The notes under the pieces: generated by a model | What the model was told of the DNA's origin: nothing | Database searches by the model: none | What the model saw: only the letters and a program-made list of their open reading frames with translations | Shown here: piece by piece, positions 3,858 through 58,671 of the stretch | How the letters are laid out: each line of letters starts with the position of its first letter | Position numbering within the stretch: position 1 is the first letter of the stretch | Made by a program: the position numbers and the translations under genes | NCBI GenBank assembly: GCA_009928785.1 | Contig: SABY01000006.1 | Location: 1,930 to 65,929, forward strand | Length of the DNA: 64,000 nucleotides | DNA from: Clostridia bacterium | GTDB taxonomy: Bacteria > Bacteroidota > Bacteroidia > Bacteroidales > 4484-276 | Direction: 5' to 3'

Positions 3858-4089
3858 GATTCTACACGTTGCGCAGTTGATCTTTCGATTAATGTCGGGC
3901 TCTTTTTATCAATCCCAATCCAAAGCTTATTCCTATAACAAACGATCATTTTGCAAATTGCAAATAGTCCGATAATTAATATTATGTTAAATGGCAGTTT
4001 CTGGTACCTTCCTCTTTCAACTTCAATACTGCAGCCTTAACATGAAATTTATTGGCTCTGAAATAAAATTGTGAGGCTATTTAATCAAT

Positions 4090-30339: not shown

Positions 30340-30670
30340 AATTTGGAAATCTTTTTTCACCCATAGCCGATTTTCACCCAGTGTTTTCACCCAAATGGGT
30401 GAAAACACCCTGTCTGCAATATTCATCCAGCGCATCGATATTTTTATACAGAAAAATATTATCTCCTGCTATCTTGTTGGTTGGTAATATTTTAAATCAC
30501 ATTTCTTTATCAACAATAAGTAACCAAATGGATCGTGGCATTACAATTGACAAGCACCCTTCATTCTGACTGATTAAAACTATTCTGCTTCGCTTCAGTC
30601 ATTTTTTTAAAGGGTATTAGAGTATTATTGTACTGTTTTAATTATTAACATTTAAATCTAATTGTTTATG
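30340..30670 (+). repeat. Copy A of a ~330-nt duplicated upstream leader/promoter segment
   Basis: Aligns along its whole length with 37194-37521. Both copies end at TTGTTTATG, the start codon of unrelated genes. Confidence 0.9.
30371..30408. promoter_or_regulatory. Candidate operator: half-site TTTTCACCCA plus a perfect 13-2-13 palindrome
   Basis: Half-site at 30371-30380. Perfect inverted repeat GTGTTTTCACCCA-AA-TGGGTGAAAACAC at 30381-30408. Confidence 0.6.
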
Positions 30671-36600: not shown

Positions 36601-37036
36601 GAGTGAGGTAACGCCTGAGGTCATAAGCACGCTCGAAGGTATTGTGCAAACCAAAACCACAGTATCCAATGCGGCCATAACCCTGCTTAACAATTTGGCC
36701 GGATATCGTGATCAGTGGGTTGAAGAGCCTGAACTAAAAGCGGTAGAAGCTGCCGGCGAAACCCGTCGCATCGACGACGCCAATAGCTTCCTGCGTATCT
36801 TCCCCAATCCTGTGAAGCATACGGCTTTTGTGGAACTTGTGAACGATACCGAAGCCGAAAGCCAACTGCAACTGTTCGACATCAGCGGACGACTGGTCGA
36901 AAACTACGCGGTAGAAATCGTGGCGGGAGGCATCGAGATAGACATGAGCCGCCTCGACGACGGGATTTACTTTGTAACCCTCACCCGAATGGATAGTGGT
37001 GTGGTGCAGAAAGGTAAAATCCTTAAGATGAAATAA
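30668..37036 (+). CDS. Giant T9SS-sorted surface protein: Cys-bounded Ig/PKD-like modules, two canonical PKD domains, a right-handed beta-helix region and a T9SS C-terminal domain
   Basis: Signal peptide ending NVKAQ. About 6 repeated modules of the form C...Y.W.V.GG.I....I.V.W....C. PKD signatures WDFGDGN and WEFGDGF. YQWYKNG-type Ig modules. Parallel beta-helix repeats (NNLFSNCNYGVRVENN, ISNNEVENAAVVGIYV, VRNNFLYNYYSIGINV). Tail FLRIFPNPVKHTAFVEL...GIYFVTLTRMDSGVVQKGKILK. ATG at 30668 is preferred over TTG at 30662. Confidence 0.85.
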   Translation: MKREITNPRTKASETYRSGLAMLIIIFTLFLSPWQNVKAQSCCPEFELKDAVEICPPEGACRDSLDPAQGAIGLAACKESAHVYTVYPNDGSFTYTWTVVGGTIATNSGNPKTILWGTSSTGTIKVVINTGFCIDSITRQVCLMAGPKAAITADRDTVCTDDLVYFTNLSLGGSTHHWDFGDGNTSTSPVNPIGHAYASPGTYTVTLTTTDMGAGQWVFGSDLQFELLVPCGCSDTATLTVVVLPGKGPEIETDCCFGTVCPDETSDFCAVDSCSVYNWSVTGGTITAGAGTKCITVQWDATYSVPTTVSLTTPGCSLAPCAGTTTINVPVLYPNFPITGPTVLCQYASGSFSLPVLPGTYYNWTVTGGSYQFNLQDRNTAIVNITFNDAATYQVKCVYDNPLAGCSGSSVFTVTVLPEFKITSGEETVCESDTWTYSANGSANWTVSPAAGATIAPAGSLANITWNTPGTYTITATPTNPAAFCNSAAYKVVDVIAKPILNSIVGNDSICPGENYTFSISSNISGSPFGWTVTMGTINILSTMGADNDSVVASFSGTGPWQLSVDQAIEITPGNFCTSLSKVINIYPFLPPVITGPATACVDDVVNYSAGGSNATGEFEWTITPSSQGSIIAGPGTSNVTIKWHGPSASAVLKVESCTGSATKTIIITAPPTAIATYSVLPVFCLDPTSTQSLTLSTPNIPGYMYQWYKNGVIMPPEIAATLNINIGTFSLPGTYTYYVEVSINGCTIKSNIINVVIKDCQNGGSGYGNCDVSAYFDAYVTCTGVILTNLSQAIPPATFTSAWSATGPGPVSFSPGPPITMTVSQSGIYTIKLTVTSSSGCVATWTQNVSILLPNADFSFSAPACDNEEVNFTANPLNPAYNYFWEFGDGFTSYQGTTSHIYGLPAPATYNVKVTITDPYGCIATKIKPVTINPSPVCTISVADTMICPGSGETLSASCTGMTSYQWYKNGNPIPGPGANAYQYTATSQGYYFVKMQNSNGCFGKSNKIYMYMHPLPKAKIDGTKRTCALPGDVVGFSLWTINNSSYSYQWSCSSPATFSPQGFSSTYATMTAPAAALMPANYEFVVEVTDNNTGCINYDTLCVSIYEAPTLSVPTLNLCEGIPVTLSPTPLDTTRYSYQWNNGATTPVITVQTAGFYSLTITDKANGCQASANAGLIFPKPDLSLFPTGCASICDPDTLHLYLPLPLNAQWPNNTYPMAYPSIIWYADGTYIGSGENLAYPATGSGYHEIWAVVQNSFGCMDTTAVFCLKDDVCCNMIFDWLKTTDASCPQLADGSFSFLLNIASTVAPFTLTQMAPPPVQSWSVTPGVPFTTPGLLPGFYVFQLSDATGGCTKTFDILIGEMQESCCFAAIDSSFIHITADITYTADKVWDNKYYIDDGVMVTVDGVVLDVTNVDVVFGECAGIQFINGGYLRSNNSVYRPCDIDKTWRGLRFWSPGKFDNIINECTFKNAEVALYFTRSSDGVVSNNLFSNCNYGVRVENNKNFNHPISGNRFVTEQFFPDWACTTKYSFVNNFSTYGIYTLNSKLLEQTAHNEFINSKGTEWPRTYGVYQIGSGGAFSENTFTDISMAFYVQGQSYYTSIENNEIEVNLQVMGSFASIYAVSNQGPVIEIINNELRNNFHQYLSFSAIYANRTNNLNIYGNTIDGFSYGIISQSAPNYQISNNEVENAAVVGIYVAEQKDSKGFITCNKIRMRNLTSSIGIAGYTMTNRSQITSNCITDCNVSISLNGLMTGSSAPLLPLVRNNFLYNYYSIGINVQNHSGNIGTFANPGLNTLWSNRNTAIDINSNLNITVADNFGMFNIAFPMVQITSNRPYHSTASCGHQIFNMPSQGNLNVNYVCENLDATLAPLTPAGNGFVLMQNYQSILSDGWNDFEEAALILASVSNPDQQLLDELIANTPLSDNQKQLLRYQYYLQIANREAAAASLSNFIPTDETEANFKFVAQTQLSIIDDWSEVTPEVISTLEGIVQTKTTVSNAAITLLNNLAGYRDQWVEEPELKAVEAAGETRRIDDANSFLRIFPNPVKHTAFVELVNDTEAESQLQLFDISGRLVENYAVEIVAGGIEIDMSRLDDGIYFVTLTRMDSGVVQKGKILKMK

Positions 37037-45081: not shown

Positions 45082-48000
45082 ATGAAAAAATTAAAAGTAA
45101 TTCTATTTTTTCTTGCATTCATTATGGCATTTTATGCATCGGCAAGGGAATTCCCCAAGGTTACCCATACAATGCCGGGAACTACTCTTCTCGGCTTCTC
45201 TAAGGGCGATACATTGCGAATGGAAGTTGATATCCCGAATCTTAACCTGGCTGCATTGAATACAGTCGATAGAAAAACCAGCTACATCAATACGATAAAC
45301 CTTGTGCTGAACAATCACTCGATTGTGACCGAGGACGTGAAAGTAAGTATATCGGGAAGTGTTTTATACCAGATCATCACTACCGCAAACCCGCAAAGTG
45401 GTCCGGTTTCACTCGAATTGGATTTCAAATCGGGAGAGGCCACTAAAAGTGCCATCTCTGAGGCCTTTGTTTTTTCAAACGCCTGGAAAGTGGAACTCTT
45501 GATAACAGATGTGAAATTTGAAGGAGCAAATGGAGCAGGAATATCTGCCGGGTTAAAACAAATACTGGCATCGTTGCTCGAAGTGCAGGTAACATTTCAG
45601 GAAGAAAGTTTTGTAAAGATAGACTACAACGGCGTAGCAAGCAACCTGATTGCCTGCCACGACACCCGCACAGATGAAGTGGTAATTGCCTGGGACGAGC
45701 TTACTGAAGCTGAGTTTTACGAACTGGAATATACCTTTGTGGATGATTACACTTCTAAACTTAATATTCACCGCAAACCCAACACTATTCCTTTCAATTT
45801 CAGGAACAACAGCACCCGCGTTGTTTTAATTGATAGCTATTATCGTTTGCCCAAACTTTTCGAAAGAGGGTATCTGCTCTACAGGGTCAGGGCGGTTGGA
45901 AGGGGTGGCAACAATCTGCAAACTCCGGTTTACTGCATGTGGACCAACAATACCAATTCCGGAATGGTTGATTCCTTTCTTGACAAGATATTTTTATCGG
46001 CACACATGGACGACCAAATGAACTGGCAGGCATCCACAACGTTTGCCGAAGAAGGCAAACGCAGCGACGTAGTCAACTATTTCGACGGAACATTCAGGGC
46101 AAGACAAACCGTTACGGGTGTAAATCTTGGAAAAAAAGATCCCGTATTTCTATTTGAAAGCCAGGTAGCAACAAATATGACAGAATTTCCCAACCCGGCT
46201 GTACCCACTATTGTTGAGCCTGAACTTATTATAACTGTTCCCTGGTCGCCTTACAATACCGGTGCTACGCCCGGGACCGTTGATTATACACCCGCAACTA
46301 CGATATCTTATAGTTCTGTTAATTGCACCAATCGGGGCAGCAATCGAATAAGGGAAGTAATTGCCGGGGAAACCATATACGATTACCAGGGCCGATCGGC
46401 GGTAACTATCCTGCCTGTGCCCACCAACTCGATGAAGATAAGGTTTTTTCCAAAGCTCAATATCAGCGACAACTCTGGAAAGCCCTACAATTGGATAGAT
46501 TTTGATGCACCAAATAACAGTTGTGCTGCTCCCGCAAAACTCTCATCAAGCCTTTATGGCGGGATCATGGGCGCCGCTGCCTATTATTCACCCAACAATC
46601 CCAATAAGCTTGGCTTCAATGCCTTTATCCCGCAGTCGGAGGGTTTTCCCTTTTCCCAGGTTTCCTATCTGCAGGACAACACCGGCAGGATTACTGCGCA
46701 AAGCGGGATAGGAAAAACTTTTCAGTTTGGTACGGGCAACAACCGGGAAACCAGTTTTTATTATGCAGCGCCCAACCAGGCCGAGATCGACATGCTGTTT
46801 GGTACTGAGGTAGGCGAAGCCATCAGGTATCAGAAAAATGCAGTGCGCGATCCCAACGGACAAGTATCAGTAACATACCTTAATCCCGCCGGACAAACTA
46901 TTGCCACCGCCCTGGCCGGTGAAACACCCGATAACCTGCTTGCCCTCGATCACCAGATAACAAACCAAATTAACGTTTCACTGATAGGTAAAAACATCCA
47001 CGACACTGATGACAAAACCATGATAACCGAACACCAGTTCCTGGTAACATCCGACAATTCAAAATATACCTTCACTTATGATATCCTGCCCGAAACACTT
47101 TCACCGTCGGTATGCAAAACGGCCTACTGCATGGATTGCATTTACGATATCAGCCTTAGCCTTAACCACGTGGAAAGCTGCACATCAGTACCACTTTTCA
47201 GCTATTCGGGTACCATTGGCCAATTGCTGGACAATCAAAATCAGATAGATTTGCAATGTCAAAACAATACGGCCACCGGCAACTACCCACGCTCATTCCA
47301 GAAAACCCTGAATGTTGGCACCTACAACCTGACTAAAAAGATACAGGTGAACGAACAGGCTGCCCTGGCTTATGTTAACGAAATCATGAAGGACACCTGC
47401 ATGTTCGAAGACCTGTTGGCAAAAGAATTATCGGCCATCGACACCATGGACTGTTACCGCTCTTGCCTCAATTGCGATAAGCCACCGGTACTAACAGCTG
47501 ACTGCGATCCCTACTATTGCGAACCCGACCTCAACCGCTGCGAAATTATAAGAAACATGATGCTGGCCGATGTTAGCCCCGGCGGGCAGTATGCAAGCTA
47601 TACCAGGGATATCAACGGAAACCCAACATCGGGTGACGAATTCTCATATTTCCATGGAAAATTTTGGAGTTCTAATACACCAGCACAACAGATCAACAGT
47701 AGTTTTAGTAATTTTCCTGGCAATGCTGATGCAAAATATCTTTTGGACAACTGGCGTCCCGAATACGCTGAGGCACTGCTAATACTACATCCCGAATACT
47801 GCATGTTGGATTGGTGCAGTGAAGAAATTAAAACAACCCTCGATTTTGATGTTTTGTTGCAATCCACGCCTTACTATAGCGATGCCAAAAAGCTCGGATA
47901 TGTTCAGACAGGACTTTCTCCTGCTTATAAGTTATTGCTCGACAACGACCCATGGTTTGCGAATGGGAATAACCAGTCGATCAAAAGCGCCTTGCTTGCA

Positions 48001-51000
48001 AAATTGCAGCATTTCCCCTGCCCCAATAACTCACCTGCAAGTCCGAAACTTCCTATTGATGAGTTGGCCATGCAATTAGCCTACTGTGCATCCCAAAACC
48101 CTCCCCAAGGCCAGTTAAATATTTCGGGGGGCAACCCGGCCACAGTTAAAATGGGCAAACCACAAATCAATCAGCCTTCCAATGCACCTTGTAATGTGCC
48201 GCCAAATTACTTTGCTACCCACACATTTGGCTCAGACAATGCGCTCGTTGATTTGGAATGGTATTTCCTGCGCTCATTGTACCTCTCGGCAAAAAATGAC
48301 CGGATTGAAGAAAGCATGAAAGTGCATGAACATGCACAACAACCAGCTTGTGTAATCAGATGTATCGGAGCGAAAAAAAATTATAACCATTCCTTTTTCG
48401 GTCAGTTAGGAAGCCCTTGTAATTTTCCATCTAATCTTTCATTAAAAGACAAAGTAAGGCGCTTCAATTATGGTATGTCAGTTTACCTGAATGCCATGGA
48501 GGAGGCAGGTACCCCGCTTGATATTTCAAAAATAACCAACATTGACGACGCCTGCGCCATTAGCCAGGCAATATCTGAACAGGCCGGTACAATCAATGAC
48601 AATTTTAGCGAAAAGTATTACCCCAATGATTTGTGCTTTGATGCGACTGAGTGTGATACTTTATTGGCATTATTGGAGACTATGGACCAAATGCTCCAGG
48701 AATTGTTGGCGAATATATCGGGTACAATTGAGTACAGTAATGGTAATGGATTGCTACCAAACGAAATTATTGCTGCCGGTATCCAAAAAATTACAGCAGC
48801 CCGGAATTTAGCGCCAAAAGAAATCATATTCAATGTGGGTGATTGCATGACCATTACAATACCGTATCTTGAAATTGATACAGTTAAAATTGCCCCGGCT
48901 TCTATTTGTTGCATTAAAGACCTTGTATGTGATGAGTCTACAGGGGTATGCAGTTTCACGCTTGTAGTCATGTACGAAAACGGAGTTCAGCAAAGCATTG
49001 CAGTTTTAGATGCTTGTTCGTACTTATTCCAATCCTGTATTAATCCCGGGGCCAATGGTGGCGTTTCAAGATGTTTTCCTACCCCGGTATTCCATGAAAT
49101 CAAGGATTATCTGAACTGTATATTTATTTATTGTATTCCAGAACCACAGATTGACCTATTGAATTGTCTGCCAAATGGCTTGAAAACCTATTTGGGTGTA
49201 CAGGCAGATTCTGTTGACATTGTGATTGATGAAAATTATTTTGATTTAACCATCTTTTATATAAGCGATATTGGAGACACTATCAAATGCAAAATTTCGC
49301 TTATCCCGGTTAACCCGGTTTCTCCGAAATGGGCATGGGAAAGTGAAACAATCCCTAATATAGAGTGCCTGGAAGGCCCGCATTCTTTTTGTACTGCCAA
49401 TGTTATTTTAAACAATGGAAATCAAGCATCAATCACCTCAACTTGCTGGGAACTTTGCGAGAATATCCCCGGCGGCACAGCAACTCCCCCTCAAAGTCCC
49501 GCTAACCTTAATTGCGGCGGAGGTTCTTTAAATGAAATTAAGATGTACAATGCACCACATCGCCCGGATCCCTGTGTAAAGGCACTCCAGACAAAGGCCT
49601 ACGCCAACGCCTCCCACTTATACCGCCAATGGGCCGACAGTGTGCGGGCCGACCTCCTTGTGCGCTACTATGCCAAATGTATGGGCGCTACCGAAAATAT
49701 CAACATTGCATACGACGACAAGCAATACCACTACACCCTTTACTATTACGACCAGGCCGGCAACCTGGTAAAAACCATCCCTCCCGCAGGGGTGGAGATA
49801 CTGACCAATACAGCAGTTGCGCAGGTGCAGGCTTCACGGGCAGCGGCATACAATGCTGCTGTTTTGCCCGGCCATTTCAAGCAAACTGTTTACCACTACA
49901 ATACACTGAACTCGCTTGTAAAGCAAAAAACGCCCGATGCCGGCGAGAGCGCCTTCCTTTACGATGGCCTGGGCCGCATTGCCGCCTCACAAAACGCCAG
50001 GCAAAAAGCAGTTGATGCTTACAGCTATACGCTTTATGATATGCTGGGCAGGATGATAGAATCAGGTGAAGTAAAAACCCTACCCGGGATACTGGCTTCA
50101 AAGGTTAGTGATTTTGCCGGCTGGACTACATTTATTACAGGCCAGGCACAGCGCAGCGAAATAACAAGTACCCAATACGATACGCCATACACCACTGCCA
50201 TCAGCCAGAAATTTGGCAGCGGCGGGCAACGCAACCTGCGCAGCCGCGTGGCTACGGTGATGCATTTTGAAAACAGCAACAAACTTCAGGCGAAGCAATA
50301 CACCCACGCCACCCACTACAGCTACGACATTGCCGGCAATGTGTATAAAATCATACAGGACTATCCCAACGGGGTGATAAACGATAAGGTTCTGGTATAT
50401 GACTACGACCTGCAAAGCGGAAAGGTGAACAGCGTTAGCTACCAGCCGGGCAAAGCCGATCAGTTTATCCACCGCTATGGCTACGATGCCGCCAACCGAC
50501 TGATAAAGGTAAGCACAAGCGCCAACGGCCTGTTTTGGGATACCGATGCCGAATACTTTTATTATCGCCACGGCCCGCTGGCCCGCCTCGAGCTGGGTAC
50601 CGACAAGGTGCAGGGCCTGGATTATTTCTACACACTGCAAGGTTTTATAAAAGGCGTGAATGGCACAAGTTTTAATCCCGAAACCGATATGGGCCGCGAT
50701 GGGATTATCGCGACACCGGGCCAGGGTGGCGCGCAGCCGGCTCCGCAACCCGTTACCATAAACGGGCAAACTTTCCAGGTATTCAACCTGAGTATGATGT
50801 TTGGCAGTTCCTTTAAGGGCCCCGGCTACGGCGCCATGCACAGCGCCATGGCACGCGATTCGTTTGGCTATGTGCTTGATTATTTTAAAGAGGATTACAA
50901 ACCGGTAAGCCCAAATGCTTTCCTGAACGATCTGGCAACCACAAGCGGGCAGGTGAAATACCTGTACAACGGCAATATTGCACGTATGTACACCCAATTG

Positions 51001-52902
51001 CAAAGGCTGGGCAACATAGGCTTTAATTACCGGTACGACCAGCTCAACCGGCTTATTTCACAGGAAGGCTGGCAACTGAACAATGGCAGCATGGGATTGC
51101 TTGGACAGGCCTGGGCCGTGAATTTAAGCTACGGCCCCGACGGCAACATATTGGCCCTGAAACGCAACGGACACACCGGCAACACGGATATGGACGACCT
51201 TAGCTACCGCTACTATGCTGCCGACGGAAGCATATTTAATCCTGCGACAGGCGCCATACCCAAAAACGCCACCAACAGGCTGGCCGGTGTAAGCGATGCA
51301 GTGGCTGCCGGCTCTTACCCCGAAGCCAATTATACGTTTGGCACGGCAACCGACATCGACAACCAAACCACAAATGGCAATTATACCTACAACCCTATTG
51401 GGAACCTGATAAGCGATGTGGCCGAAGGGATTAGCGATATTAAATGGAACCTGCAAAACAAGATTAGCCAAATTGAAAAGAACGACGGCACTGTGCTTAG
51501 CTTTGAATACGATGCTTTGGGAAACCGTGTGATGAAAGCCGTTAAAAGCGCAAACACCGACCTAAAAACCTGGTATGTACGCGATGCACAGGGCAACACC
51601 ATTGCCGTTTATACCAAAAACGAACCTGCGCAGGCCGAACAAAAAGGATTGCGTTGGGCCGAAGCCCACATGTACGGAAGCAGCCGTTTGGGCTTGTATA
51701 AACCCGATATGGAGATGCCCTCCGCAACTACCGGAACGACCGTGGAACCCAATATGTACCCCACTGGTTTGTACGAACCCGGAAATGTACAAGCAGGGCA
51801 GGGAGATGTACAGCCATGGGAGGGAAACGCTACACAGGGCTTACTCACACCCCAAACAGCTACATCGCATACCCAGCCGGCAACAGGCACAAATTATAAA
51901 ACCACACGTGGCCACAGGCATTACGAGCTTAGCAACCACCTGGGCAATGTGCTGGCCACCCTAACCGACCGCAAACTGCCCGCTAAAGATAAGAACGGAA
52001 TTCTTTTTTATACAGCCGACCTAATCTCAGCACAGGATTATTATCCTTTCGGGATGTTGATGCCTGGCAGGTCATTCACTGGTTCTCAGGGCTATAGATA
52101 TGGGTTTGGTGGACAAGAAAAGGATAACGAAGTCAGCGGAAATGGAAATTCTTATACTGCCGAATATTGGCAATATGATGCTAGACTTGGTAGAAGGTGG
52201 AATAATGACCCGATTGTAAAAACATGGGAAAGTCCTTATGCTGCTTTTGGAAACAACCCTATTTATTATAACGACCCAAATGGAGATGATATTGATTGGG
52301 GAAAAGGTATGAAAGGATTTTTTAGAATGATTGGTACAAATATAAAATCTTGGTTTAACAAAGATTTAAGAGAAAACCTTAAAGAGTGGAGAAAACCAGG
52401 AACGATTTTCCACTTTGTTAAAAAGGCAGGAGAGCCAACTTTAGCTTCTGGTGGGAGAGCGGTTCCATGGAAAAAAACTGAAGGAAATACAAGTTTATAT
52501 TACTCTTCTCCTGGAGATGGATTGAGGAGTATTAGTTTTTCACTGCCTAATATGAAACTCCCGTCAATTAATTTGAATCTGCTTCAAGGTTGGGGAACTT
52601 TTTTTGCACCGAGGGGCAGCGGAATAGGAGGCTCCTATAATACTGCTCCACAGCACCTTTTTTCATGGGGCTTAGGTAATTACAAAAGATTTAATTCTCT
52701 TGGTTTCAGGAGACCTAGCTGGGGGTTTATGACGCCTGATGCTCGGATTGGAAGACCTGATAGAGGTTCGCTTTTTATGATTTCATGGAAAACTAAAAAA
52801 AATCCAAGAGTTTACAATTGGATTTCCATAGGTACTGCAATTCAAACAAAAGAAAGGATTATTAAATTTCATAAGGAGTTGCATTTTAAACGAAGAAGGT
52901 GA
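45082..52902 (+). CDS. RHS/YD-repeat protein with signal peptide, long Cys-rich N-terminal extension, RHS-associated core and a ~205-aa C-terminal tip of unknown function (candidate polymorphic toxin)
   Basis: Signal peptide MKKLKVILFFLAFIMAFYASA. YD repeats (YYYDQAGNLVKT, YDGLGRIAASQN, YTLYDMLGRMIESG, YSYDIAGNVYKI, YGYDAANRLIKV, YRYDQLNRLISQ, FEYDALGNRVMK). Core end YYPFGMLMPGRSF...YRYGFGGQEKDNE...YDARLGRRWNNDPI...NNPIYYNDPNGDD. The start lies 2 nt after the upstream stop. Confidence 0.88.
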   Translation: MKKLKVILFFLAFIMAFYASAREFPKVTHTMPGTTLLGFSKGDTLRMEVDIPNLNLAALNTVDRKTSYINTINLVLNNHSIVTEDVKVSISGSVLYQIITTANPQSGPVSLELDFKSGEATKSAISEAFVFSNAWKVELLITDVKFEGANGAGISAGLKQILASLLEVQVTFQEESFVKIDYNGVASNLIACHDTRTDEVVIAWDELTEAEFYELEYTFVDDYTSKLNIHRKPNTIPFNFRNNSTRVVLIDSYYRLPKLFERGYLLYRVRAVGRGGNNLQTPVYCMWTNNTNSGMVDSFLDKIFLSAHMDDQMNWQASTTFAEEGKRSDVVNYFDGTFRARQTVTGVNLGKKDPVFLFESQVATNMTEFPNPAVPTIVEPELIITVPWSPYNTGATPGTVDYTPATTISYSSVNCTNRGSNRIREVIAGETIYDYQGRSAVTILPVPTNSMKIRFFPKLNISDNSGKPYNWIDFDAPNNSCAAPAKLSSSLYGGIMGAAAYYSPNNPNKLGFNAFIPQSEGFPFSQVSYLQDNTGRITAQSGIGKTFQFGTGNNRETSFYYAAPNQAEIDMLFGTEVGEAIRYQKNAVRDPNGQVSVTYLNPAGQTIATALAGETPDNLLALDHQITNQINVSLIGKNIHDTDDKTMITEHQFLVTSDNSKYTFTYDILPETLSPSVCKTAYCMDCIYDISLSLNHVESCTSVPLFSYSGTIGQLLDNQNQIDLQCQNNTATGNYPRSFQKTLNVGTYNLTKKIQVNEQAALAYVNEIMKDTCMFEDLLAKELSAIDTMDCYRSCLNCDKPPVLTADCDPYYCEPDLNRCEIIRNMMLADVSPGGQYASYTRDINGNPTSGDEFSYFHGKFWSSNTPAQQINSSFSNFPGNADAKYLLDNWRPEYAEALLILHPEYCMLDWCSEEIKTTLDFDVLLQSTPYYSDAKKLGYVQTGLSPAYKLLLDNDPWFANGNNQSIKSALLAKLQHFPCPNNSPASPKLPIDELAMQLAYCASQNPPQGQLNISGGNPATVKMGKPQINQPSNAPCNVPPNYFATHTFGSDNALVDLEWYFLRSLYLSAKNDRIEESMKVHEHAQQPACVIRCIGAKKNYNHSFFGQLGSPCNFPSNLSLKDKVRRFNYGMSVYLNAMEEAGTPLDISKITNIDDACAISQAISEQAGTINDNFSEKYYPNDLCFDATECDTLLALLETMDQMLQELLANISGTIEYSNGNGLLPNEIIAAGIQKITAARNLAPKEIIFNVGDCMTITIPYLEIDTVKIAPASICCIKDLVCDESTGVCSFTLVVMYENGVQQSIAVLDACSYLFQSCINPGANGGVSRCFPTPVFHEIKDYLNCIFIYCIPEPQIDLLNCLPNGLKTYLGVQADSVDIVIDENYFDLTIFYISDIGDTIKCKISLIPVNPVSPKWAWESETIPNIECLEGPHSFCTANVILNNGNQASITSTCWELCENIPGGTATPPQSPANLNCGGGSLNEIKMYNAPHRPDPCVKALQTKAYANASHLYRQWADSVRADLLVRYYAKCMGATENINIAYDDKQYHYTLYYYDQAGNLVKTIPPAGVEILTNTAVAQVQASRAAAYNAAVLPGHFKQTVYHYNTLNSLVKQKTPDAGESAFLYDGLGRIAASQNARQKAVDAYSYTLYDMLGRMIESGEVKTLPGILASKVSDFAGWTTFITGQAQRSEITSTQYDTPYTTAISQKFGSGGQRNLRSRVATVMHFENSNKLQAKQYTHATHYSYDIAGNVYKIIQDYPNGVINDKVLVYDYDLQSGKVNSVSYQPGKADQFIHRYGYDAANRLIKVSTSANGLFWDTDAEYFYYRHGPLARLELGTDKVQGLDYFYTLQGFIKGVNGTSFNPETDMGRDGIIATPGQGGAQPAPQPVTINGQTFQVFNLSMMFGSSFKGPGYGAMHSAMARDSFGYVLDYFKEDYKPVSPNAFLNDLATTSGQVKYLYNGNIARMYTQLQRLGNIGFNYRYDQLNRLISQEGWQLNNGSMGLLGQAWAVNLSYGPDGNILALKRNGHTGNTDMDDLSYRYYAADGSIFNPATGAIPKNATNRLAGVSDAVAAGSYPEANYTFGTATDIDNQTTNGNYTYNPIGNLISDVAEGISDIKWNLQNKISQIEKNDGTVLSFEYDALGNRVMKAVKSANTDLKTWYVRDAQGNTIAVYTKNEPAQAEQKGLRWAEAHMYGSSRLGLYKPDMEMPSATTGTTVEPNMYPTGLYEPGNVQAGQGDVQPWEGNATQGLLTPQTATSHTQPATGTNYKTTRGHRHYELSNHLGNVLATLTDRKLPAKDKNGILFYTADLISAQDYYPFGMLMPGRSFTGSQGYRYGFGGQEKDNEVSGNGNSYTAEYWQYDARLGRRWNNDPIVKTWESPYAAFGNNPIYYNDPNGDDIDWGKGMKGFFRMIGTNIKSWFNKDLRENLKEWRKPGTIFHFVKKAGEPTLASGGRAVPWKKTEGNTSLYYSSPGDGLRSISFSLPNMKLPSINLNLLQGWGTFFAPRGSGIGGSYNTAPQHLFSWGLGNYKRFNSLGFRRPSWGFMTPDARIGRPDRGSLFMISWKTKKNPRVYNWISIGTAIQTKERIIKFHKELHFKRRR

Positions 52903-53068
52903 TTTGGTGGATGAAACAAAATCACATAATTATTATAAAAATGGTGTAACATTTTAATTGAATACAATAATCTGTAAATCCAGGCATATTATAAACTAAA
53001 GGAAAAAAACAAAAGAGATTGTATTGTATTTGAACTGTTATTTTGGTAAATTGTATAAATTTATTAGA

Positions 53069-53272
53069 ATGATAGTTATTGCTTTAGTACTGTCAATGTC
53101 GCTGTTAGAATATTCCTATTCTCAAGTAGATACGGTACAGACATTGTTGAACAACTCTTTCCCGTTGGACTCGCTTTTGATGAGTGATTTTAAATTCCCA
53201 GATAAAAAAAATTTATATGTTTGGTTGGGTGTTATCAGAAAGCAAATATGCTATGAATTCGGCAAAGAGTAA
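53069..53272 (+). CDS. Small exported hypothetical protein, candidate immunity protein
   Basis: 67 aa from the internal ATG, with signal-like MIVIALVLSMSLLEYSYSQ. It lies directly downstream of the RHS tip in the same AT-rich block. The support is position only. Confidence 0.35.
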   Translation: MIVIALVLSMSLLEYSYSQVDTVQTLLNNSFPLDSLLMSDFKFPDKKNLYVWLGVIRKQICYEFGKE

Positions 53273-53411
53273 TGCATCAAAAATGGAAAATAACGATGTA
53301 TGATTTTGAGTCAAAATTAGAATAAATTTAGTTGTTAATAAAAATTGTTTTTCCCCCGCCATCGCGGATTTGCAATCCACGCCAAAACGTCAATATAAAT
53401 GGAAGCAAATT

Positions 53412-53558
53412 ATGAAACGATATCGGCTTTTTGTAATAATCATTCTGTTTTTCCAATCGTGCGACCGTTGTGAAATTTTAAAGCTTGAGGGTGGGGTATT
53501 AATTTCAGATTTCAACAAAACACACAATGTTATTTATCAGAAACTTATAGAATCATGA
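53412..53558 (+). CDS. Small lipoprotein-like hypothetical ORF, second immunity candidate
   Basis: 48 aa from the internal ATG, MKRYRLFVIIILFFQSC with a lipobox-like Cys. Weak: it is short and lies in AT-rich sequence. Confidence 0.25.
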   Translation: MKRYRLFVIIILFFQSCDRCEILKLEGGVLISDFNKTHNVIYQKLIES

Positions 53559-53610
53559 ATAAACTCGCATCTCGTCCCATTTTATAAGCCTTTTTGCTGC
53601 TATGAAAAAT

Positions 53611-53818
53611 GAGATTTCTCCCTTCGGTAACAATGACAAGCAGGGATAGATTTCTCCCTCCGGCACTGGGCTGCGCCCGTGCCTTCAGTCGAAAAGACAG
53701 GGCTTTCATAGGGGGGTGGGGGAAGGGAAATCGGGCGCTCTGCGCCCGATTTCCCTTCCCCCTACTAATAACCAGACGGCTCTGTCATTTCGACGAGCGC
53801 AGCGATGGAGAAATCTAT
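53611..53818. mobile_element. MITE-like element, copy 1, with a perfect 21-bp-stem hairpin
   Basis: Ends GAGATTTCTCCC... and ...GGAGAAATCTAT are inverted. GGTAACAATGACA faces CTGTCATTTCGAC. Hairpin at 53718-53762: GGGGGAAGGGAAATCGGGCGC-TCT-GCGCCCGATTTCCCTTCCCCC. Confidence 0.6.
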
Positions 53819-54024
53819 TCTTTAAATGGTTTTCAAAAACTTGCCAATGGTAAGGAGCTCGCAGCTGTGAAATCTATTACAAAGAAAATGTTTTGACACC
53901 TCAGCTTGAGGATCCCTTCACCGTTCACACCCTAAAAGCTACCGTTTATGTAAGCACTTAATCCGTTCACACAATGGCTGGGTTTTTCGATTGGAAACAG
54001 TATAGTTTTACCTTTTTTTAAACC

Positions 54025-54123
54025 ATGAAAAATTTAAAAGCATTTCTGTTTCTTATCTTGTTGCTAATCATATCAGCAACATCGCAAGGCCAGGACAGCC
54101 CATCGCCTGTTCAGTTCCATGGT
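54025..54123 (+). pseudogene. 5' remnant of a paralog of the 55480 outer-membrane gene
   Basis: ATGAAAAATTTAAAAGCATTTCTG...GGCCAGGACAGCCCATCGCCTGTTCAGTTCCATGG parallels 55480-55578 (MKNL..GQDSP.PVQFHG). Similarity stops where REP-like sequence begins (~54124), and the frame closes at 54181-54183. Confidence 0.7.
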
Positions 54124-54406
54124 CCCGGCTGGCGCGGATTTTTAATCCGTGCCGGATATTTCCCTACCAGGTGGCATTTGTAATGCCGCTTAAAACAAAG
54201 CCTAAATTGTATATGGCAAAGGAAACTGCAAAGGCCAAAAGAGCATACACACTTTAGGTTTCGGCATCCTCTTGCCGGTGTTTTCGGTATCGCCGGCTGC
54301 ACAGGAGCTAAAGTTTCATGGCACCCCCGCCCGCCGGGCAAATTGCCAACATGCAGGGTTGTAGGCAGGAGTTGGTGGCAGAGTTTTTCAGGAACTGCCA
54401 GGCGGG

Positions 54407-54476
54407 GTTCGCAGAACCCAAACCTGACAGTGTTCGCAGAACCCAAACCTGACAGTGTTCGCAGAACCTGTCAGCG
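54407..54476. repeat. 25-bp tandem repeat, 2 exact copies plus a partial one
   Basis: GTTCGCAGAACCCAAACCTGACAGT at 54407-54431 and 54432-54456. Partial copy GTTCGCAGAACCTGTCAGCG at 54457-54476. Confidence 0.9.
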
Positions 54477-54528
54477 TTTACCAGGATGAATTTTTTACCG
54501 GATATTTATCAGATGAACAGACACAGTC

Positions 54529-54552
54529 AGGTCTTGCAGACACTGACAGGTC
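54529..54552. repeat. REP-like unit flanking the RayT-like gene (left)
   Basis: AGGTCTTGCAGACACTGACAGGTC. It is near-identical to 55233-55256 and in the same orientation. Confidence 0.7.
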
Positions 54553-54583
54553 AGACAGGTCGGTCGGGTCAGGTGTTCACGGT

Positions 54584-55180
54584 TTAATCCCCCTTTTTAT
54601 GATATTCGATAAATTCCGCCTTCGAGTTAAACCATCCCAAAACTTTTTCGCGCTGCAGGCAGGTTGGTTTTACTGAGATAATCGTCAGATATGAGGTCCA
54701 GGGATAGTCGATCAGATTTTCGACGAAACCATGTTTAACAGGATTGTTATGAATATAAAACACTACTTGTTTGAAATATTGCTCATCGGTAATCTTGATT
54801 CTACGGAAAGGGGTTTCAAACAGTGCACCGGTTCTTTCATACCTGAAGTTGAACGCTTTGGCATAAGCATCAAAAAGATGGGCAAACTGGCGTGACGGAT
54901 TGTATTTTTTCTTTTCAGGGTAAATCCGTTTATCTCCCTCTTTCGGCTTCATATACTGGATTTCATCCTCCGCCAGAATGCGAACAAGCAAATGGAAATG
55001 ATTTTTCATCAGGCACCAGGCAAATGTGTCGGCAATATGTACGATGTATTCATCATAAAGCCTTAGGAAGCGCAAATAATCATCCTCCCGGCGAAAGATA
55101 TCGGCGCCATTTATCCCACGATTGTAAATGTGGTAGTATGCATCGTATTCGACAGGTTTTGTTGTATTCAATGGTAACAA
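54584..55180 (-). CDS. IS200/IS605-superfamily Y1 (HUH) transposase-like protein, RayT/REP-associated type
   Basis: YHIYNRG..., HUH motif NHFHLLV, and a Tyr region FYIHNNPVKHG. Its ~198 aa size fits, and it is flanked by REP-like units. Confidence 0.7.
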   Translation of the reverse strand: MLPLNTTKPVEYDAYYHIYNRGINGADIFRREDDYLRFLRLYDEYIVHIADTFAWCLMKNHFHLLVRILAEDEIQYMKPKEGDKRIYPEKKKYNPSRQFAHLFDAYAKAFNFRYERTGALFETPFRRIKITDEQYFKQVVFYIHNNPVKHGFVENLIDYPWTSYLTIISVKPTCLQREKVLGWFNSKAEFIEYHKKGD

Positions 55181-55232
55181 TGTTTTTTCAAAAGTAGTTT
55201 ATTTTTTTATTTCTCTTTTCTTTGACACTGTT

Positions 55233-55256
55233 AGGTCTTGCAGTCCCTGACAGGTC
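55233..55256. repeat. REP-like unit flanking the RayT-like gene (right)
   Basis: AGGTCTTGCAGTCCCTGACAGGTC, which differs from the 54529 unit only in the central 3 nt. Confidence 0.7.
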
Positions 55257-55270
55257 TCATAGGTATCCAT

Positions 55271-55314
55271 GTTTTCACCCATGTGGGTGGTTTTACAGCC
55301 GGTTTTCACCCACC
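55271..55314. promoter_or_regulatory. Degenerate third copy of the TTTTCACCCA operator motif
   Basis: GTTTTCACCCA-TG-TGGGTGGTTTTAC at 55271-55296, plus GGTTTTCACCCACC at 55301-55314. It sits 166-209 nt upstream of the 55480 ATG. Confidence 0.5.
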
Positions 55315-55479
55315 ATGGTTTAATAATAATTAACTGAATTTTTTTCAAGAAATATGTTTTATTTTTAAATTACATCATATCAATCCTTTACAAAATCAAA
55401 AGACCATTATTATCCCTCAAAACAAAACAAGGCACACCCTTTGACTTATAGGTATTTGTAACCTATAAATGCAAGGAAA

Positions 55480-57588
55480 ATGAAAAATTTAAATATACTT
55501 CTGATTCTTATCTTGTCGCTAATGGTATCGGCAACATTGAAAGGCCAGGACAGCCCGTTGCCTGTTCAGTTCCATGGTTCCAACATATTCATCGGGCAGT
55601 ATTCTAACATGCAGGGTATTGGTCAGGAAATTCCCCCATCGTTTTACCACAACGAGTTGCAAATGACACTTACGGCTTACGATATTCCCGTGTCGGCAAG
55701 TTTTTTCGTTACTTCCCAGCAATCCGACATGAAGCAAAGCATCAATAATTTCAGGATTTATTTCGATTACCGCAAAATGCTACAAAACAAAGGGCTTAAC
55801 CTTAGCGACGATATAGTTACTGCAGCAGCAATGTCGGGTCTGAATAAAATTGAAAGCACCAAAGCAGAACTCGAAAAATCTGAGGATTTAATCAAAACTG
55901 ATATTACCGGTTTCCTTGGTGAAGTTGATGTGCAGCAAAAGATTTACATAAAGGCACAAAAGGAATTGGAGGAAGCGCAGCAGCGCGGGGATGTGGAGGG
56001 GGTGGAAAAAGCAAAGATGCGTATGGCTGAGGCAAAAGCTGCCAGGGAAAAAGCAATTTCCGCCTACGAAAACGCTAAATTAAAGATGGAAGAATTACAG
56101 GCAAAGCTTAAAACAACTTTAGAAGCTGTTGAAAAAGCCAAAGGCCTTGTCGAAAAGGCCAAATCACAAACCTACGATTCGAAAGCAATCAGGAAAAATG
56201 CTGAAGCCAAAGCCAGGGAAACCATGTTGCCAGGAGTTTCGCGCCTCATGTCAAATTTTACAACCTTCGAAATCGGGAGATGCCGCCCCAATTATAGCGA
56301 GCTTACCCTTAGGGGAGTACCGGTTTCGGGGGTAAATATCGAATTTACGCCGGGCAAGTTTTATTCGGCCTTTACCACTGGTAAAACAAAAAGACCCATC
56401 ACGCCCGATTCGATAACACGGCCGGTATATGAACAAAACATTTTGTTTGGTAAGTTTGGATATGGGAAAAAACAATCAACCCATTTTTACCTTAGTTACC
56501 TTCATGCCGAAGATGATATCAACTCGCTGCCTTCGCCCCCTGAGTCGGATACCACTTTGGTGGGCGCCAGATCAAACTATGTTATCGGGTCGGAATTAAA
56601 ACTTTCTTTTTTTAAACGAAAATTCATCATCGAGGGCGAAGGTGCAATGTCGATGCTTACACGCGATACACAAGCTCCTGAAATTGACTGGTCAACAACG
56701 GATGTGCCGGATTGGGCATCCGGGTTATTTGAACCCAACATGAGCAGCAGCGTTGATTATGCTTATAATTTGAAAGCGGATCTTAAGCTGAACAAAACAA
56801 ACATATCAGGAGGGGTGCAAATGACAGGCCCCGGATTTGTAACACTCGGCAATCCCTACCTCGTGAACGACAGGCTGACCTACCATGGCAGCATCAAACA
56901 AACATTTGCAAAAAGGCAGGTAAGCATAACCGCTTTTTACAAACAGCACACGGACAACCTGATCGAATGGAAAAAAAACACATCCCAAACTCATGCTTAT
57001 GGTATTACTACAGGATTTAGATTCAGGAAAGCTCCTTATCTGATGGTTAGCTACATGCCAATTTTGCAGGAAACGGCCAATGATACACTGGATTTGACAA
57101 ATCAAATTACCCTGATAAATATCACATCCGGATACAACTACAAGATTGGTAATTGTCGCAGCATGACCAGCTTCAGCTTTTTCTATCAGGATGCAAAAAC
57201 AGGCATGGACTCAATAGTTGATCCTGTAAAAAATAGTACTTATACTCTTACGGAGATACTTAACTTTACTAAGCCGGTGAGTATTTCCACCACCATATCC
57301 TATACCCAATGTGCATTTTTAGGCCAGGAAATAGAAAGACTCATGCTTTCACTTAGCGGCTCACTGATGGCTTTTAAAAATAAATGGAGCAACACGCTTG
57401 GCGTAAACTTTTCGCATCAGGATGTACAGCATCAGAAAATTGGTTTCTTCTGTGATTCCAGCTTGCAACTCTGGAAAGGCAGTGATCTTGGCCTAAGAGC
57501 CGAAAAAAATATTATTGATGATGTTTTTTATTCAGATGTCAGGGTTGACGAATTCATTGCCAAGCTTAGCATAAGATTTAGCTGGTAG
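55480..57588 (+). CDS. Predicted outer-membrane beta-barrel protein with an inserted Ala/Lys/Glu-rich coiled-coil segment
   Basis: Signal peptide MKNLNILLILILSLMVSATLKGQ. Coiled-coil-like stretch ~aa 110-235 (KAQKELEEAQQRGD...AKAAREKAISAYENAKLKMEELQAKLKTTLEAVEKAKGLVEKAK). The rest has an alternating beta-strand pattern and ends ...LSIRFSW, an aromatic C-terminus as in OMPs. Confidence 0.6.
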   Translation: MKNLNILLILILSLMVSATLKGQDSPLPVQFHGSNIFIGQYSNMQGIGQEIPPSFYHNELQMTLTAYDIPVSASFFVTSQQSDMKQSINNFRIYFDYRKMLQNKGLNLSDDIVTAAAMSGLNKIESTKAELEKSEDLIKTDITGFLGEVDVQQKIYIKAQKELEEAQQRGDVEGVEKAKMRMAEAKAAREKAISAYENAKLKMEELQAKLKTTLEAVEKAKGLVEKAKSQTYDSKAIRKNAEAKARETMLPGVSRLMSNFTTFEIGRCRPNYSELTLRGVPVSGVNIEFTPGKFYSAFTTGKTKRPITPDSITRPVYEQNILFGKFGYGKKQSTHFYLSYLHAEDDINSLPSPPESDTTLVGARSNYVIGSELKLSFFKRKFIIEGEGAMSMLTRDTQAPEIDWSTTDVPDWASGLFEPNMSSSVDYAYNLKADLKLNKTNISGGVQMTGPGFVTLGNPYLVNDRLTYHGSIKQTFAKRQVSITAFYKQHTDNLIEWKKNTSQTHAYGITTGFRFRKAPYLMVSYMPILQETANDTLDLTNQITLINITSGYNYKIGNCRSMTSFSFFYQDAKTGMDSIVDPVKNSTYTLTEILNFTKPVSISTTISYTQCAFLGQEIERLMLSLSGSLMAFKNKWSNTLGVNFSHQDVQHQKIGFFCDSSLQLWKGSDLGLRAEKNIIDDVFYSDVRVDEFIAKLSIRFSW

Positions 57589-58282: not shown

Positions 58283-58534
58283 ATAGATTCTTCCCCGAAA
58301 AAGCGGGGCAGGCTGCTAAGCTAACAATGACATGTTTTTATAAGAGGCTGAATATTAAAGCATTAAACTGATATCTCAATCGCTTCGCTCTTTCGAGGTA
58401 ACAATGGCGTTGTGATTATGGGGGAGAGGAAAAAAAATCGCGAAGCGATTTTTTTTCCTCTCCCCACCCATTCGTAGTCCTGTCATTTCGACCAAGACAC
58501 ACAGCGAAGCAGTGTGTCGCCGGGAGAAATCTAT
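58283..58534. mobile_element. MITE-like element, copy 2, with a different perfect 21-bp-stem hairpin
   Basis: ATAGATTCTTCCCC... faces ...GGGAGAAATCTAT, and CTAACAATGACA faces CCTGTCATTTCGAC. Hairpin at 58421-58465: GGGGAGAGGAAAAAAAATCGC-GAA-GCGATTTTTTTTCCTCTCCCC. Confidence 0.6.
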
Positions 58535-58671
58535 TCCTCTTTGTCATCACCTCATTATGCACGAAAACTTTGGGTGAACTCGGACAGCAGTGTTTCCAAA
58601 TAGTGATATTGGAAATGATTCAGAAAGCGTTCACAGTGTCACTGCTTCGCGGATTGACTGATAAATCTTAT

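Follow-up and report, generated by a model that had tools for sequence, protein, structure and literature searches.

What does the C-terminal tip of an exported RHS protein do, and which gene, if any, protects the cell that makes it? The question is raised by a locus in a 64,000-nucleotide (nt) stretch of contig SABY01000006.1 (assembly GCA_009928785.1, positions 1,930 to 65,929 of the forward strand), which we call the window and whose numbering we use throughout. The genome is named Clostridia bacterium and is placed by GTDB in the Bacteroidales. An RHS/YD-repeat protein of 2606 amino acids (aa) ends here in a basic tip of 209 aa, and two small open reading frames (ORFs) with signal-like starts, ORF A and ORF B, follow. 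An original prediction, made from the DNA letters alone, had taken the tip for toxin cargo and the two ORFs for candidate immunity modules. We report that the tip belongs to a very rare family, that its homologues are followed by a large exported partner, and that ORF A is what is left of that partner in the window. The reading we favor, and hold to be probable, is that the tip is polymorphic RHS cargo in a captured cassette whose partner has decayed, with an action that may be directed at the envelope and non-enzymatic.

An exported RHS protein with a putative C-terminal cargo

The RHS protein begins with a Sec-type signal peptide (residues 1-21, MKKLKVILFFLAFIMAFYASA), continues with a Cys-rich region of unassigned fold (about residues 22-1600) and a YD-repeat shell and core (about residues 1620-2397), and then runs into the tip. 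All 46 of its 46 cysteines lie within the first 1600 residues (45082-49881), with none in the shell or the tip, which suggests that the N-terminal region is disulfide-rich and extracytoplasmic. The protein matches Pfam RHS_repeat at 27.1 bits (E = 5.6e-6; cut-off 22 bits) and TIGR01643 YD_repeat_2x at 20.8 bits (cut-off 15.8). The core model TIGR03696 (Rhs_assc_core) aligns to residues 2320-2401 over model positions 1-75 of 76 and reaches 22.6 bits, below its cut-off of 32.5; an orphan homologue described below, P0002, passes that cut-off with 38 bits over its own residues 12-80.

The TIGR03696 alignment terminates at NNPIYYNDPNG, in the PxxxxDPxG(L) motif that divides the shell of Rhs proteins from their C-terminal toxin region (Rhs-CT) (PMC8636562). 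The core had been predicted to end with the Asp codon at 52273, and that coordinate is right: GAC at 52273 is Asp2398 within NNPIYYNDPNGDD, and DPNG occupies residues 2398-2401. We are confident of the overall architecture, an RHS protein exported by Sec, with a shell that would surround a C-terminal cargo of about 23 kDa set off by PxxxxDPxG.

Neither the RHS protein nor its neighbors carry a PAAR, VgrG-binding or Eag-chaperone N-terminus in Pfam or NCBIfam, the N-terminus being the Sec signal, and there are no type VI secretion system (T6SS) genes in the window. A Tc toxin was also considered and rejected: neither the 2606-aa protein nor the adjacent 2012-aa protein has a SpvB, TcdB_toxin_midN/midC or TcA-type Pfam match at E <= 5. 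Searches of both proteins against PDB sequences returned no match.

The tip belongs to a very rare family of RHS C-termini

Counted from the Asp of DPNG, the tip has an isoelectric point (pI) of 10.7, 25 Gly and 29 aromatic residues, no Cys and no hydrophobic segment of transmembrane grade. It matches no Pfam or NCBIfam family at E <= 1 and no PDB sequence, in keeping with its first description as a basic tail with no recognizable toxin motif, and a PDB profile search returned noise alone (E ~0.7). Known toxin domains (HNH, GHH, deaminase, ADP-ribosyltransferase (ART), peptidase, Ntox/Tox) were rejected, as no curated Pfam or NCBIfam model of them matches the tip. A C-terminal sorting domain of the type IX secretion system (T9SS) was rejected in the same way, with no Por_Secre_tail or type-B C-terminal domain match in either collection; that the Por_Secre_tail model works in this genome is shown by its detection (PF18962) in a neighboring 2124-aa protein. 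By a rough estimate from base composition, 209 open codons in DNA of 37% GC have a chance of about 1e-6.

Homologues of the tip are scarce. A word-indexed search of 5.8-billion protein clusters with the tip alone found nothing, and HMMER over 1.84 billion representatives gave one match, P0001, a protein of 138 aa that corresponds to tip aa 1-45 and is carried by four near-identical metagenome contigs (L001-L004). When the tip was compared with L001 by tblastn, aa 1-60 aligned at 47% identity and aa 60-203 at 33% in another frame (joint E = 9e-20), so that this copy is frameshifted. A two-sequence profile search retrieved P0002, an intact protein of 283 aa that covers 99% of the tip (E = 1e-37), and contig L008, found by a metagenome scan, carries an intact version of the L001-type tip. 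A first scan of genome contigs with the tip gave no match, and neither did tblastn of plasmids with the tip and with the partner described below. Outside the window, only two further tip lineages were found, both as orphan cassettes in microbial-mat metagenomes, where a short ORF starts inside the RHS core-end and runs on into the tip. The tip portions of P0002 and of the L008 orphan match no Pfam or NCBIfam family at E <= 10, the sole match of these proteins being Rhs_assc_core in the core-end.

Across the three lineages, pairwise tip identities are 35%, 39% and 48%, with the window tip at 35-39% to the others; the first 45 aa are 49-71% identical and the remainder 31-41%. Composition is held in common, with a pI of 10.3-10.7, 12-15% Gly, 12-14% aromatic residues, next to no Cys, a grand average of hydropathy (GRAVY) of -0.47 to -0.66 and a maximum 19-residue Kyte-Doolittle mean of 0.63-0.88. 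Fifty-five positions are invariant, all of which the window tip retains in a frame that is intact over 209 codons. The best-conserved part, tip aa 7-41, holds 19 invariant positions; amphipathic helices are predicted in it, both AlphaFold2 runs place helices there at low confidence, and the hydrophobic moment of the tip is highest at aa 8-25. Judged by these comparisons, the tip family is a real, very rare and previously undescribed RHS-CT family with three known lineages.

The mat contigs offer some further observations. The orphan tip is frameshifted in L001-L004 and in L009 (near L001:8400-8455; four samples) and intact in L008:88-825, which reflects either a pseudogene circulating in the mat population or strain-level variation. 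The same contigs hold arrays of modules made of an orphan RHS core-end and a tip (L008:2092-3153 and 3182-3994; L001:10123-10380), and one module pairs an unrelated 280-aa tip with a TPR lipoprotein behind it, a further candidate for exported immunity.

The tip appears to have arrived in a swappable cassette

A genome scan found five orthologues of the RHS protein, in a Prolixibacteraceae metagenome-assembled genome (MAG), a Tangfeifania MAG, Stygiobacter electus, a metagenome chromosome and a distant Bacteroidetes MAG. Four are 46-48% identical to it and end their alignment at query residue 2401 (one at 2412), and the fifth is 30% identical and ends at 2394. Beyond the core-end, their tails are unrelated to the window tip or to one another, which agrees with the earlier view of the tail after DPxG as variable cargo. 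Some tails look low-complexity rather than enzymatic, and none has a Pfam match apart from a PT-HINT pretoxin domain in the distant orthologue.

The orphan modules of L001 and L008 show where such a replacement may have begun. Their homology to the window starts at 52054-52060, and GC content falls at about 52050, from 0.468 in the RHS body to 0.382 over 52054-52902 and 0.298 over 52903-53560, an AT-rich block that had been recognized from the outset. Over window positions 52090-52293, nucleotide identity to the core-end of another L008 orphan is 79%, and the donor-like contigs have a GC content of 0.33-0.37. Because the start of orphan homology coincides with the GC drop, and given the nucleotide identity to L008 and the low GC of the contigs, it looks as if recombination in the core-end, from about 52054, exchanged the 3' end of the RHS gene for a cassette that came from a lineage of low GC. 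Recombination at this place has been described for Rhs-CTs (PMC8636562). No further orphan core-ends or partner fragments occur elsewhere in the window.

ORF A is the remnant of a large exported partner

In L001, L005/L006 and L008, an ORF of 376 or 362 aa starts 2-12 nt past the stop codon of the tip, and such a partner follows every copy of the tip that we found, whereas ORF B has no counterpart. The two partner types share 45% identity (E = 2e-103) and the possession of a Sec signal peptide, and [FY]SQ[VL]DT is common to them at the predicted cleavage site. Partner and tip diverge in parallel across the lineages. The tight coupling, the presence in all three lineages and the parallel divergence make the partner the immunity candidate of the cassette, a role we infer from position.

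The partner itself resembles little else. Its only match in Pfam and NCBIfam is the unrelated Sld3_N (E = 0.047), it has no PDB-sequence or PDB profile match, and a profile search with it returned P0003 itself and nothing else. From the order of its motifs (GE[FY]H ... RE ... GxxH) we had presumed a relation to Tiki/TraB/ChaN/erythromycin-esterase proteins. This lead failed: there is no Pfam or NCBIfam match to these families at E <= 10, and hhalign against E. coli YbaP (TraB family) gave a probability of 0.15%.

The partner can be traced in the window to the syntenic position, where ORF A lies. In tblastn searches against the whole 64 kb, P0003 hits this position with E = 1.9e-4 and the 376-aa partner with E = 0.008; reciprocal E-values go down to 6e-6, and 0 of 1000 shuffles score as high as the observed similarity between ORF A and the partner N-terminus. 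A three-frame reading shows that the match moves to the +1 frame past a run of eight A (53204-53211). Deletion of one A from this run yields an ungapped alignment of 52 residues that closes with IYMFG, and the ungapped score rises from 79 to 100 for P0003 and from 67 to 93 for the 376-aa partner, values reached by 0 of 500 shuffles in either case. Homology ends at 53225, directly ahead of the conserved GE[FY]H motif of the partner. The stump keeps about 14% of the gene and about 33 of about 340 mature residues, and tblastn finds no fragment of the other ~300 codons elsewhere in the window. Frameshifted and truncated as it is, ORF A is a remnant of an exported partner of about 365 aa and not the tiny immunity gene it was thought to be. 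With the partner decayed to a stump, the window encodes no functional cognate immunity protein.

ORF B is possibly another stump

Both small ORFs are present 3' of the tip, at the positions first given for them, and they differ in what can be said of them. The length of ORF B is at chance level, as simulated sequence contains about 0.9 ATG-initiated ORFs of at least 45 aa per 698 nt. Its start (MKRYR-LFVIIILFF-QSC) arises in 0.03-0.1% of Markov simulations, an optimistic figure since the pattern was defined post hoc. Like ORF A, ORF B has no match in Pfam, NCBIfam or PDB sequences; it also lacks a homologue in the loci compared or elsewhere in the window, and nothing comparable to it lies downstream of the partner in L001, L005 or L008. 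The idea that ORF B is the missing 3' part of the partner, moved to a new place, was also rejected, its alignment score to the partner being under the shuffle mean. Two stumps with signal peptides can be demonstrated in this intergenic stretch, ORF A and 54025-54183, and on the simplest view ORF B may be another such remnant of an exported protein. Its proposed role as an immunity module finds no footing in these searches, where it shows neither similarity to the partner nor a homologue.

These results bear directly on the idea that the tip is an active toxin acting from the periplasm and that ORF A, ORF B or both are small exported immunity proteins. Both ORFs do sit in the AT-rich block immediately 3' of the tip, the signal peptide of ORF A is intact and shares homology with the one on the cognate partner, and the lipoprotein-like start of ORF B is rare by chance. 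Against this, ORF A retains only about a tenth of the mature partner, with the frameshift at the A run and nothing from GE[FY]H on, and ORF B is unlike the partner and is found behind no other tip copy. We regard small immunity proteins at this locus as very improbable.

Related loci and the fate of the partner

At the four close orthologous loci, the next conserved gene begins 39-137 nt past the RHS stop codon, with no immunity gene between, so that the pairing of toxin and immunity gene cannot be taken for granted in this RHS family. The distant relative, a 4105-aa protein (L014:7689-20006) with a PT-HINT pretoxin domain ahead of its tip, is followed 2 nt downstream by a DUF3885 protein (L014:20008-20541) and is the sole relative with a classic immunity-like neighbor.

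Loss of the partner from the window could be accounted for in three ways: an intact copy could lie outside the window, kin cells might never receive the tip, a possibility to which the orthologues with no immunity gene point, or the tip could be a relic. More broadly, the tip may be a relic or a non-toxic cargo whose partner decayed after capture of the cassette since the tip lacks activity, does not reach kin or is aimed at cells other than bacteria. The truncated partner and the four orthologous loci with no immunity gene fit this, as do the orthologue tips that look low-complexity; the frameshifted tip seen across four mat samples shows that the family does decay. We nevertheless think it rather unlikely for the window, where the tip keeps its full frame and every position shared by the three lineages, and where an intact partner could exist beyond the 64 kb.

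A possible envelope-directed mode of action

In the mechanism we propose, the cassette would travel in three parts: the last ~75 aa of the RHS core, the basic tip of about 205 aa and the Sec-exported partner of 362-376 aa. The tip would be held inside the shell and, by analogy with Rhs and TcC proteins, would be cut between DPNG and the D that follows by aspartyl-protease activity of the core. Autoproteolytic release of the C-terminus by such an activity is described for characterized Rhs and TcC proteins (PMC8636562, PMC8765631), and we infer the release of the tip from this likeness. Once free, the tip would be toxic and would act in the periplasm or the envelope, a site suggested by the export of the partner. 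The same target had been proposed before from the exported neighbors; the argument is strengthened by the Sec-signal partner of the relatives and does not carry over to the tiny ORFs themselves.

The chemistry of the tip would be binding or permeabilization rather than that of a nuclease, deaminase, ART or peptidase. In the three sequences, no invariant position after D8 is an Asp, Glu, His or Cys, which argues against the usual chemistries of these enzyme classes. If any part of the tip binds a membrane or a target, its conserved amphipathic N-terminus (about 40 residues) is the likeliest. Tentatively, the tip may thus act by a non-enzymatic route at the envelope or membrane surface, although for this part of the reading we would put the chances below even. 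A helical pore like that of Tse5 was considered and set aside as unlikely, given the lack of hydrophobic segments of transmembrane grade.

The opposite possibility is that the tip is an enzyme of new fold that works in the cytoplasm of the target, for example on nucleic acids, and that the partner is accessory or unrelated rather than an immunity protein. The paired GxxH-type motifs of the partner look enzyme-like rather than binder-like. The tip is also very basic (pI ~10.7), and many Rhs-CTs are nucleases, ARTs or deaminases (PMC8636562). The invariant positions speak against it, however, as do the failure of the enzyme lead for the partner and the coupling at 2-12 nt with parallel divergence in all lineages, which is typical of toxin-immunity pairs. 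We hold a cytoplasmic enzyme to be improbable.

Several points weigh against the reading of the tip as captured, envelope-directed cargo. The core model stays at 22.6 against a cut-off of 32.5 bits, and the boundary motif closes with D instead of L. By the standards of immunity proteins the partner is large, and it belongs to no recognizable family; its loss would be surprising for an active toxin delivered to kin. With no immunity genes at its four closest loci, this RHS family may serve no interbacterial toxin function at all. Invariance is judged on three sequences. The tip has no stretch of transmembrane grade (0.63-0.88), which makes a classical helical pore unlikely, and the AlphaFold2 models are both unusable (pLDDT, the predicted local distance difference test, of 38.5 from the single sequence and 32.1 from the 3-sequence alignment). 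With these points taken into account, we still consider captured, envelope-directed cargo with a decayed partner the probable reading as a whole. A bolder version, in which the tip, as a non-enzymatic and very basic toxin rich in Gly and Trp, and a large, possibly enzyme-like periplasmic partner form a new envelope-acting toxin-immunity pair on a Sec-exported RHS carrier independent of T6SS, maybe with non-kin targets, is speculative and in our judgment unlikely.

Neighboring genes and intergenic debris

The carrier belongs to a conserved operon of 513-aa, 2012-aa, 2606-aa RHS and 702-aa outer-membrane-protein-like proteins (37513-57588; L010-L013), which is shared with Prolixibacteraceae and Tangfeifania (Bacteroidota) and with Stygiobacter (Ignavibacteriota). 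Three relatives share 58-59% identity with the 2012-aa protein. The operon proteins have no match in Pfam, NCBIfam or PDB sequences beyond the RHS repeats, and a literature search found no publication on DUF6443. The 702-aa protein has a signal peptide, a coiled coil and a beta-rich C-terminus and resembles an outer-membrane protein. The 2124-aa PKD/beta-helix protein is encoded immediately ahead of the operon (30662-37036), and its Por_Secre_tail (T9SS sorting) domain identifies the organism as a T9SS-bearing member of the Bacteroidota.

The 702-aa gene directly follows the RHS stop codon in the close orthologous loci, at 39-137 nt, and in the window 2.6 kb of debris intervene. These comprise the partner stump, ORF B, palindromic or REP-like repeats, a duplicated gene start and a repeat-flanked IS200/RAYT-like ORF. 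The duplicate of the start of the 702-aa gene creates the third signal-peptide stump ORF (54025-54183, 52 aa) and marks a rearrangement; the duplicate could derive from the donor locus or an old rearrangement. The 198-aa IS200/RAYT-like ORF is flanked by a 41-nt direct repeat (54520-54560 and 55224-55264) and by three 25-nt tandem repeats (54398-54472), with the look of a RAYT/REP unit.

Other repeats were noted in the same stretch. The 20-nt sequence GCGGATTTnnAATCCryGCC occurs in the 64 kb only at 53364-53383 and 54134-54153 (0.02 expected by chance); both sites adjoin rearrangement breakpoints, the second forming a good hairpin (z -2.6) and the first being degenerate. A GC-rich repeat block at 53600-53830 contains a perfect 21-nt palindrome (53718-53762) and, over part of its length, shares 75% similarity with 58476-58547. 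The motif GAGAAATCTAT recurs at 53642, 53808 and 58524. Rfam, run on 52000-56000, returned chance hairpin matches to the perfect palindrome and nothing else.

Table 1. Features of the RHS locus, in window coordinates
Feature	Position	Strand	Basis
RHS/YD-repeat protein, 2606 aa	45082-52902	+	ORF and translation, RHS_repeat, Rhs_assc_core, Cys distribution, orthologues L010-L014
Putative swappable cassette: last ~75 aa of RHS core plus tip	52054-52902	+	Start of orphan homology, GC drop, nt identity to L008
PxxxxDPxG boundary motif (P-IYYN-DPNG, then D not L)	52258-52284	+	Direct sequence reading; TIGR03696 end at aa 2401
C-terminal tip, 209 aa from Asp of DPNG	52273-52902	+	Homologues P0002 and L008/L001 type; composition
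Best-conserved part of tip (tip aa 7-41, IDWGxGxKGF...FNKxLRxNLKxWR)	52291-52395	+	19 invariant positions, hydrophobic moment
Partner 5' stump (signal peptide plus ~33 mature residues)	53069-53225	+	Syntenic tblastn, shuffle tests after 1-nt repair
ORF A as drawn	53069-53272	+	~47 codons of partner stump, last ~20 out-of-frame read-through
ORF B, 48 aa, lipoprotein-signal-like start MKRYRLFVIIILFFQSC	53412-53558	+	Signal-like start rare in simulations
Copy of first 102 nt of 702-aa gene, 86% identical (source 55480-55581)	54025-54126	+	Repeat D1, self-blast
198-aa ORF with HxH and Y motifs, resembling IS200/RAYT-like Y1 transposases	54584-55180	-	Weak Y1_Tnp (E 0.049); repeats D2, D3
702-aa neighbor: signal peptide, coiled coil, beta-rich C-terminus ending IRFSW	55480-57588	+	tblastn against L010-L013, translation

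Discussion

Taken together, these results enlarge the known set of polymorphic toxin cassettes by one orphan RHS-CT family and its partner family, under the standard logic of Rhs cassettes. The locus offers a clean worked example of cassette capture, with a crossover at the core-end, a shift in GC content and donor-like orphan modules in metagenomes. As the case of ORF A illustrates, a small ORF with an export signal downstream of a toxin tip can turn out to be the residue of a longer gene, a point of relevance to the annotation of immunity genes. The carrier operon is the more unusual object and the one of wider value: it is Sec-exported, spans two phyla, encodes about 5,800 residues of protein with no known domain beyond its RHS repeats, and has close orthologues with no immunity genes. 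The P0002/P0003 pair would offer a workable starting point, should the tip turn out to be toxic when it acts in the periplasm.

Among known systems, the nearest are the Rhs polymorphic toxins of Enterobacteriaceae, Pseudomonas and Photorhabdus (architecture in PMC8636562). The window protein shares with them a YD-repeat shell, PxxxxDPxG between a conserved body and a hypervariable C-terminus, a C-terminus of deviant GC content and, in its relatives, a tightly coupled downstream partner gene, of which the window has the stump. Orphan modules that start in the core-end, and so provide homology for recombination, are a further likeness; displacement by orphan rhs-CTs was reportedly described by Koskiniemi et al. 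in 2014. The differences are as plain. A Sec signal and a Cys-rich region of ~1600 aa replace the PAAR, VgrG-binding and T6SS or type VII secretion system adaptors; no known domain is found in the operon partners of the window (513, 2012 and 702 aa); the motif closes with D rather than L and the core model stays under its cut-off; the partner, at 362-376 aa, is both large and exported; an immunity gene is missing from the close orthologous loci; and directly downstream there is no intact cognate immunity gene, only a frameshifted stump of 52 codons.

Tc toxins, in which a TcB-TcC cocoon joins TcA (surveyed in PMC7861908), offer a second comparison. Unlike them, the 2606-aa and 2012-aa proteins have no SpvB, TcdB_toxin_mid or TcA-type domains. 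The likeness lies in an RHS cocoon with a hypervariable C-terminus, autoproteolytically released in Tc toxins, and in a second giant protein encoded alongside. Tc toxins also typically come with no immunity gene since their targets are eukaryotic, a further resemblance to the window carrier.

For the proposed action of the tip, the closest parallel is Tse5 (PA2684), an Rhs protein of P. aeruginosa whose C-terminus is a pore-forming toxin that acts on membranes, preferentially from the periplasmic side (PMC10684867). The tip differs from it in having no sequence similarity to it and in a carrier whose delivery is not through T6SS; Tse5 nonetheless provides a precedent for an Rhs-encapsulated C-terminus that is non-enzymatic and acts on membranes.

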